Source: Escherichia phage phiHAO2-2
Reading direction: 5' to 3' (one strand)
Length of the DNA stretch: 39,299 bases
Sequence record: PP079212.1
Numbering within the stretch: position 1 is the stretch's first letter; each line of letters starts with the position of its first letter. This document shows positions 36,292 to 36,741 of the stretch, one piece after another. Position numbers and translations under genes: made by a program. The notes beneath the pieces were generated by a model that was given only the letters and a program-made list of their open reading frames with translations, did no database searches and had not been told where the DNA came from.

Positions 36292-36741
36292 ATGCTCGAA
36301 TTTTTAAAGAGAGCGGCTCCGTGGTTACTTGCAGCAGTGATGTTTGCTGGTGGCTACCACACCGCTAACAATAAGTGGGAGGCTAAGGTCAATGCAGAAT
36401 ACACCTCGAATCTTAAGGCATCGGAAGATACAAGGCTTGCTGTCCAAGCTGAAGTCAACAAAGTGTCCAAACGGTTTCAGGACGAAATGTCCTCGCTGGA
36501 AGGCAGCACTGATAGGATTATTGCTGACCTTAAGTCTGACAATAAGCGGCTGCTCATCCGAGTCAAACCTACGAGTGGAACCACGCAAAGTGACGGTCGA
36601 TGCTTCATTGATGGTTACGCCGAACTTGACGAACGAGATGCTAAACGTCTTATCGCCATCGGAGTGAAAGGAGACAAGTGGATTAAGGCCCTTCAAGACA
36701 CTGTGAGAGCCTTACAGCAAGAGAAGGAGGTGACGCATTGA
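36292..36741 (+). CDS. i-spanin (Rz-like, gp18.5)
   Basis: 149 aa with N-terminal transmembrane segment. MLEFL...[20 protein letters not shown]...ELD.RDAKR....GD.WI.ALQDT.R.LQ is collinear with T7 gp18.5. Confidence 0.88.
36437..36667 (+). CDS. o-spanin (Rz1-like) lipoprotein embedded in the +1 frame of Rz; start codon uncertain
   Basis: The +1 frame inside Rz encodes ...[18 protein letters not shown] (lipobox-like LTISGC, Cys codon at 36551-36553) followed by a short Pro-containing tail to stop 36665-36667. No in-frame ATG upstream of the lipobox; TTG 36437 is one candidate start. Confidence 0.4.
   Translation: MLSKLKSTKCPNGFRTKCPRWKAALIGLLLTLSLTISGCSSESNLRVEPRKVTVDASLMVTPNLTNEMLNVLSPSE

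Follow-up and report, generated by a model that had tools for sequence, protein, structure and literature searches.

A conventional upstream ATG as the probable start for the nested o-spanin gene of Escherichia phage phiHAO2-2

The subject of this report is a small gene of Escherichia phage phiHAO2-2 (sequence record PP079212.1), of which a stretch of 39,299 nucleotides (nt), hereafter called the window, was analysed. The gene lies wholly inside the Rz-like gene, between the genes for the small and the large terminase (genes 18 and 19). It is real and already well known: it is gene 18.7 of the T7/K1F-type phages. The best explanation of the observations, which we consider highly probable, is that this gene 18.7 homologue codes for the o-spanin subunit of a two-component spanin and uses the +1 frame within gene 18.5, the i-spanin gene, in which it is wholly embedded. 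Its translation very probably starts at a conventional codon, ATG 36392.

In the original prediction, which had been made from the DNA letters, the gene was placed at 36437-36667. It was claimed that no ATG occurs in this frame from the preceding stop to the lipobox, that initiation must therefore use a non-canonical codon such as TTG 36437, and that this implies an unusual control of translation for the last step of lysis. However, an in-frame ATG is present at 36392-36394, between the stop TGA 36338 and the Cys codon at 36551, 45 bases upstream of TTG 36437 and 53 codons before the Cys codon. The inference of a non-canonical start fails because its premise, the lack of an ATG, is false, and start conservation, frame openness, Shine-Dalgarno (SD) strength and the clade-specific occurrence of the TTG favour the ATG. 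Of the predicted coordinates, the frame and the stop are correct, whereas the start omits the first 15 codons of the gene as it is annotated, from the ATG, in K1F (AM084414 gp18.7; RefSeq NC_007636, YP_424963.1), MopsHU1, ZG49 and CR44b.

The embedded gene and its product

The ATG of the o-spanin gene is 100 nt downstream of the Rz ATG (36292), which places it in the +1 frame relative to Rz. This frame is open from 36341, behind the stop mentioned above, to TGA 36665-36667. The translated product matched two profiles, Pfam PF17531 (O_Spanin_T7; E=1e-25, 89.9 bits at a cut-off of 25, residues 32-88) and PHROG 4306 ('Rz-like spanin'; E=1.5e-36, residues 2-88 on profile positions 1-83/84). These matches and the lipobox, together with the location of the gene in frame +1 of the Rz-like gene and between genes 18 and 19, bear out the prediction of an embedded o-spanin, functionally equivalent to Rz1, and on sequence grounds the +1 frame can be assigned to the T7-type o-spanins (gp18.7 family). 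The designation 'Rz1-like' is appropriate as a functional analogy but not as a statement on the sequence family of lambda Rz1, because PF17531 was the only family obtained in the Pfam scan (E<=0.01).

The lipoprotein signal and the short tail were also predicted correctly. An uncharged hydrophobic core is followed by the lipobox I-S-G-C, which conforms to the pattern [LVI][ASTVI][GAS]C, and the Cys codon is followed by 37 further residues, of which the first (position +2) is Ser, not Asp. According to the '+2 rule', Ser rather than Asp at this position is consistent with sorting of the lipoprotein to the outer membrane. The coordinates of these elements and of the neighbouring genes are collected in Table 1.

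In the proposed mechanism, translation from the ordinary ATG 36392 behind the GGGAGG SD would yield a 91-residue prolipoprotein. Its predicted signal peptide is 53 residues long, with a very basic n-region of 37 residues, a hydrophobic core of 13 residues and the lipobox. What follows is based on general lipoprotein biogenesis and on work with the lambda and T7 spanins (PMC6139136, PMC3276506). The precursor would be exported by the Sec pathway and lipidated on Cys54. Signal peptidase II would then cleave it and, as it has Ser at +2, the Lol system would sort it to the outer membrane. The mature lipoprotein of 38 residues would bind the C-terminus of the i-spanin across the periplasm, and lysis would be completed, after the action of holin and endolysin, when the spanin complex disrupts the outer membrane. 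Cleavage by signal peptidase II would produce the same mature lipoprotein from either start, therefore the choice between ATG and TTG would affect only the discarded signal peptide. With the ATG present and the mature product identical, the suggestion of unusual translational control of lysis loses its basis.

Table 1. Coordinates of the o-spanin gene, its parts and the neighbouring genes in the window
Feature	Position	Strand	Basis or remark
SD region of the o-spanin gene	36377-36388	+	GGGAGG 36377-36382 (9-nt spacer); AAGG 36385-36388 (3 nt before the ATG)
Embedded o-spanin gene (T7/K1F gene 18.7 homologue), most likely full coding sequence, 91 residues + TGA	36392-36667	+	ATG, PF17531, PHROG 4306, conservation and openness tests
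Long basic n-region of the predicted signal peptide, residues 1-37	36392-36502	+	11 Lys/Arg, no acidic residue
TTG, Leu16 of the 91-residue form, alternative start	36437-36439	+	Used in phage Peacock and SpaninDataBase
Hydrophobic h-region, 13 residues	36503-36541	+	
Lipobox I-S-G-C	36542-36553	+	Codon of the putatively lipidated Cys54 at 36551
Predicted mature o-spanin, 38 residues (Cys + 37)	36551-36664	+	VDASLMV motif
Class II holin (gene 17.5)	35736-35930	+	Pfam PF10746, E=2.1e-22; PHROG 920 holin
Small terminase (TerS)	35927-36190		
Rz-like i-spanin (T7 gene 18.5 homologue), 149 residues, host frame	36292-36741	+	PHROG 1327 'Rz-like spanin', E=3.3e-60
Large terminase (gene 19, TerL), TTG start overlapping the Rz stop	36738-38501	+	Open reading frame; annotation in relatives

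Start and open frame across 18 lineages

For comparison, a sample of 99 sequences (the window and 98 loci) was assembled, which contained 88 distinct Rz genes and fell into 18 lineages at 85% Rz identity. The 98 loci consisted of 18 annotated loci from at least nine genera and 80 IMG/VR loci; a query with a single Rz protein had returned close relatives only, and the latter loci were then found with an alignment of 13 Rz proteins. Start codons were located by anchoring each sequence separately, since the start of the K1F clade is shifted by one codon and a count by alignment column was misleading.

In all 18 lineages an ATG or, in fPS-59, IME15 and Kallioja, a GTG was found 39-53 codons before the lipobox Cys (codon positions given below as negative numbers are counted from this Cys). 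A strong SD of the GGAGG type preceded this start in 17 lineages, and in the remaining one, Pasteurella phage PHB02, the ATG at -52 had a weaker GGAG SD. Three further loci, missed by automated parsing, also fit the pattern. The window thus shares with the family an SD-preceded ATG/GTG about 48-53 codons before the lipobox Cys, at a distance of 53 codons and with GGGAGG 9 nt upstream. The hydrophobic core and the lipobox were conserved in 18/18 lineages, as was the VDASLMV motif of the mature part. In the K1F clade the ATG (-53) is one codon upstream of that of the sister Kayfunavirus lineages (-52): at this site Rz reads ...V-N-A-E-Y in the window (36391-36396) versus ...V-x-N-E-Y in three sister loci (L036, L098 and L011; alignment columns 49-50). 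It looks as if the start of the K1F clade had moved by one codon yet was retained.

The start is composed of bases 2-3 of one Rz codon and the first base of the next. In each of the 18 lineages the Rz codon under the start was the sole synonymous codon that preserves a start in the +1 frame, and the next base was G. The codon was Asn-AAT in 14 lineages (13 tabulated and PHB02; one of the 14 also has Asp-GAT), Arg-CGT in two, His-CAT in one and Ser-AGT in one. The product of the background frequencies, taken from the Rz-only parts, was approximately 1e-8 over the 17 lineages with a strong SD, and with the less favourable Asn usage of the whole gene (230 AAT : 94 AAC, 71% AAT) it was approximately 0.01 for the 13 tabulated Asn lineages alone; because the lineages share ancestry, these multiplied probabilities overstate the significance and have to be taken as upper bounds, which counts against the strength of the argument. 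The restriction of Rz replacements at this site to start-preserving codons would nevertheless be hard to explain otherwise.

Openness of the +1 frame was tested by keeping each Rz protein fixed and resampling its synonymous codons. For the window, the probability that the +1 frame is open from the ATG to the h-region was 0.037. Over the 16 codons after the conserved start, which cover the stretch between ATG and TTG, the frame was open in 18 of the 18 lineages against 8.7 expected, whereas over the 16 codons before the start it was open in nine against 10.3 expected, and in several lineages an in-frame stop was located 0-2 codons before the start. Openness begins at the conserved start, therefore the boundary of the protected frame is the SD-preceded start and not any internal codon.

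The same organization was reflected in the third-position divergence of Rz among the 18 lineages, which was 0.59 and 0.65 in the Rz-only parts, 0.48 in the region of the SD and the start, 0.51 over the first 13 o-spanin codons, 0.60 in the middle of the extension, 0.32 in the h-region and lipobox (the zone most conserved in both frames) and 0.35 in the mature part. Substitutions within clades that were silent in Rz and replacing in the o-spanin numbered 10 in the mature part, as opposed to 19 of the reverse type, which indicates that the o-spanin frame is favoured there; in the extension the corresponding numbers were 23 and 11. These values suggest a visible dual-coding constraint on the h-region and the mature part, whereas the extension appears to be translated but barely constrained in sequence.

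Duplex formation with the 3' end of 16S rRNA was predicted to be of similar strength for ATG 36392 (-10.2 kcal/mol), the Rz start (-10.8 kcal/mol) and the holin start (-10.0 kcal/mol). In 14 of 14 lineages examined the anti-SD duplex of the conserved upstream start had an energy between -6.6 and -13.3 kcal/mol, whereas for the internal alternative starts of the same lineages the values ranged from +0.5 to -7.1 kcal/mol, all corresponding to weak SDs.

Internal starts and the long signal peptide

The first alternative to be considered is dual initiation, in which ATG 36392 and TTG 36437 would give rise to two precursors of one mature lipoprotein, and differences in export kinetics might tune the accumulation of the spanin. 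Every K1F-clade sequence examined contains both codons. In MopsHU1 and ZG49 a GAA to GAG change, silent in Rz, creates GGAGG 9 nt before the TTG, and in one locus, L030 (IMGVR_UViG_2974585782_000001), the alignment column of TTG 36437 holds an ATG, whose SD is poor (-1.8 kcal/mol). A second in-frame ATG occurs at -31 in T7, Yep-phi and PHB02, and dual starts are known in phage lysis genes, for example S105/S107 of lambda. Because of the sequences of MopsHU1, ZG49 and L030, some minor internal initiation may take place in the K1F clade. Against dual initiation as a general property, the internal candidates differ by lineage: they are at -38 in the K1F clade and at -32, -31, -29 or -27 outside it, their SDs are weak throughout, and phage IME15, whose GTG at -48 is preceded by an SD, has no further ATG, GTG or TTG before a TTG at -11. 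No conservation signal was detected around the TTG, where the third-position divergence of Rz equalled the Rz-only background, and with identical mature proteins from both starts a selective benefit would be speculative. Taken together, these data make dual initiation unlikely.

The second alternative is that the o-spanin is made only from TTG 36437 or from CTG 36440, as a precursor of 76 or 75 residues with a signal peptide of 38 residues, which is still long but closer to the usual kind, and that the ATG is an accident of the Rz sequence. Signal peptides with n-regions of 37 residues are unusual, and TTG starts do exist in the phiHAO2-2 genome, as illustrated by TerL (36738). The shorter form gave a good LipoP prediction according to the curators of SpaninDataBase (PMC6139136), and the o-spanin of phage Peacock is annotated from the equivalent TTG, with a 3-nt 'GGA' as ribosome-binding site. 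However, the 20 nt upstream of TTG 36437 allow an anti-SD duplex of only -3.5 kcal/mol, and the codon is limited to the K1F clade. In the sister lineages L036 and L098 its place is taken by CTG, a synonymous codon of the o-spanin, and the sequence Gly-Leu-Leu-Ser-Lys is kept. TTG 36437 is thus not a non-ATG start conserved among relatives together with a ribosome-binding site, and no equivalent start is conserved elsewhere, with none at all in IME15. Exclusive use of the TTG would also leave unexplained why an ATG or GTG was kept in every lineage through start-preserving Rz codons and why the frame is open from this start in all lineages when fewer than half would be expected. Moreover, the note of the curators reveals that the start was chosen to satisfy the prediction tool (PMC6139136). 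We regard exclusive initiation at the TTG as quite improbable.

The third alternative, that the +1 reading frame is a chance open frame in Rz without a functional protein, draws on the observations that genes rich in Lys and Glu may by chance keep an overlapping frame free of stops and that the upstream control region was open in half of the lineages, but it is effectively refuted by conservation, as judged from the two profile matches, the lipobox and the VDASLMV motif retained across the lineages, the reduced synonymous variation of Rz over the h-region and the mature part, and the listing of T7, along with lambda, among the experimentally tested embedded spanins (PMC6139136).

Several observations weigh against the preferred start, ATG 36392, in addition to the GGAGG sequences of MopsHU1 and ZG49 and the minor internal initiation that they suggest. 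When the 20 nt upstream of the start were resampled synonymously, selection for the SD did not reach significance (Fisher combined p=0.078 over 18 lineages), and in the K1F clade the Rz Trp-Glu codons gave an equal or better SD in 60% of the resamples. Since GGGAGG is thus largely dictated by these codons, conservation of the SD was not counted as independent evidence. Calculations of mRNA folding (partition function, three sequence contexts) favoured neither start: the SD of the ATG was mostly paired and the start codon open, the TTG showed the reverse, and such folding has limited meaning inside the actively translated Rz gene. For the long K1F form the curators reported no good LipoP match (PMC6139136). 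A literature search for N-terminal or initiation-site mapping, ribosome profiling or proteomic detection of gp18.7 yielded no such study for any T7-group phage. Finally, lipoprotein signal peptides are typically much shorter than 53 residues, of which the n-region here takes up 37.

The very long basic signal peptide is indeed the unusual feature of this gene, and it has already been noted by the spanin curators. A basic extension maintained by selection was considered as an explanation and rejected, because in most lineages the observed charge was within the resampled distribution; in the window the net charge of the extension was +10 (36 residues scored) compared to 8.7 ± 1.4 for resampled Rz. 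As the charge matches that obtained by resampling Rz and the region evolves approximately as fast as synonymous sites of Rz allow, it seems that the long n-region arose as a side effect of overprinting on Rz and was not selected for its sequence. We read the arrangement as an initiation site placed at a point of Rz at which both an SD and a start codon were available, with the long extension following from this placement. It is also conceivable, although doubtful, that all T7-group o-spanins are made with an extended signal peptide of conserved length (48-53 residues), including a translated long basic n-region, and that this extension, or a secondary TTG precursor in the K1F clade, modulates Sec targeting or the rate of maturation and thereby the timing or dosage of lysis. 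The extended signal peptides of autotransporters and the dual-start lysis genes are loose analogues of such a function. The data presented here favour translation of the extension but disfavour selection on its sequence or charge.

Related phages, annotation and neighbouring genes

The window represents a K1F-like coliphage of the T7 group (Kayfunavirus) with the complete T7-like gene order. Over the 601 bases around the o-spanin gene the identity was 100% with Escherichia phage phiHAO1-1 and 99.2% with phage K1F, and 577 phage records, mainly T7-group Studiervirinae, matched this region. Gene 18.7 of K1F (CAJ29394.1 / YP_424963.1, 'Rz-like spanin') is the same as the gene of the window in position, length (91 residues), SD context (AACAATAAGTGGGAGGCTAAGGTCA-ATG), lipobox and mature sequence. 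The difference is a single residue of the n-region, Gln2 in the window and Arg2 in K1F, and the underlying change is silent in Rz (GCA/GCG).

The prototype of the embedded two-component spanins of this family is gene 18.7 of T7 (83 residues) with gene 18.5. It shares with the window the +1 embedding, an ATG that follows an SD and lies a long way upstream of the lipobox (by 48 codons in T7 and by 53 in the window), a basic n-region, the TISGC lipobox, the VD(A/S)SLMV motif and the site between genes 18 and 19. The Rz proteins are approximately 50% identical, the region before the Cys is five codons longer in the window, and the mature part has 38 residues compared to 35 in T7 (Cys included). 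At -31, where T7 has its second in-frame ATG, the window has none; it has the TTG at -38 instead. Rz1 of lambda, the founding embedded o-spanin, is likewise a small lipoprotein of the outer membrane, with a gene that occupies frame +1 within Rz; it pairs with the i-spanin and is needed for disruption of the outer membrane (PMC6139136). In contrast to these similarities, no sequence relationship between the two o-spanins was detectable, as the Pfam scan of the window protein returned only the T7-type family. The signal peptide of lambda Rz1 is also short and conventional (about 19 residues), as opposed to 53 residues in the window.

Annotation of these starts has been variable. The conserved start is used not only in K1F and the relatives mentioned above but also in T7, BIS33, fPS-59 and L1, and T7 gp18.7 has been treated as a protein of 83 residues made from the upstream ATG (PMC3276506). 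In contrast, the K1F o-spanin is entered in SpaninDataBase (Kongari et al. 2018, PMC6139136, supplementary files 2 and 6) with 76 or 75 residues, starting from the TTG or the next CTG, and the long n-region is flagged there as 'Too long signal sequence'. The same source gives 84 residues for K11 (ATG at -48), 68 for KP32 (TTG at -32) and 50 for IME15 (CTG at -14), and the curators' notes on these starts voice doubt (PMC6139136). K11, KP32, IME15 and K1F all possess the conserved SD-preceded start (loci L008, L014 and L001 are among the sequences). Judging by the curators' note, the non-ATG start was a tool-driven choice, applied inconsistently among homologues, and not the outcome of an experiment. 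The Peacock o-spanin (QEG09715.1) and the K1F entry of SpaninDataBase are the same gene with the same stop, starting at the TTG of the original prediction, and the difference is one of annotation, not of biology: Peacock DNA has the same ATG and SD 45 nt upstream. Misidentified start codons were described by Kongari et al. as a major problem for lysis genes (PMC6139136).

Two records with Gram-positive host names carry a coliphage-type Rz/o-spanin cassette, MT350292.1 ('Enterococcus phage EFA-1', 98.2% nucleotide identity) and OR786095.1 ('Staphylococcus phage MBBL139', 72.6% Rz amino-acid identity). Because spanins act on the outer membrane, which is absent in Gram-positive hosts, these host labels are probably wrong and the sequences are probably those of a contaminating coliphage.

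The host gene of the overlap is labelled gp18.5 or i-spanin in K1F, Peacock and others, and its product gave a weak, sub-threshold match to Pfam Phage_lysis. An antisense open reading frame of 123 residues with a TTG start (36325-36696, minus strand) spans nearly all of the spanin overlap and is probably a chance open frame opposite the dual-coding region. No RNA family was found when the entire window was scanned with Rfam. The genuine non-ATG start of the region is TTG 36738 of TerL, downstream of the TTG wrongly claimed for the o-spanin. It is located 4 nt after a near-perfect SD, AAGGAGGTGA, with an anti-SD duplex of -13.0 kcal/mol, at the junction caTTGAgt (start codon 36738-36740), and TerL is annotated from the same TTG in K1F, RefSeq K1F, Peacock, MopsHU1 and vB_EcoP_F. 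In CR44b, RDN8.1 and fPS-59 the spanin genes are separated from the large terminase gene by inserted genes for HNH homing endonucleases, which abut or overlap the end of Rz; the phiHAO2-2 window has no such insertion at this place.

The codon-choice and openness tests argue coherently for the SD-preceded upstream start as the ancestral and conserved one. The biological import of this result is small: the o-spanin has long been annotated as gp18.7, and the anomaly ascribed to it was due to an overlooked ATG. Its practical value is in annotation, since the o-spanin starts of T7-family phages are given inconsistently in GenBank and SpaninDataBase (ATG at -48/-53, TTG at -38/-32, CTG at -14).

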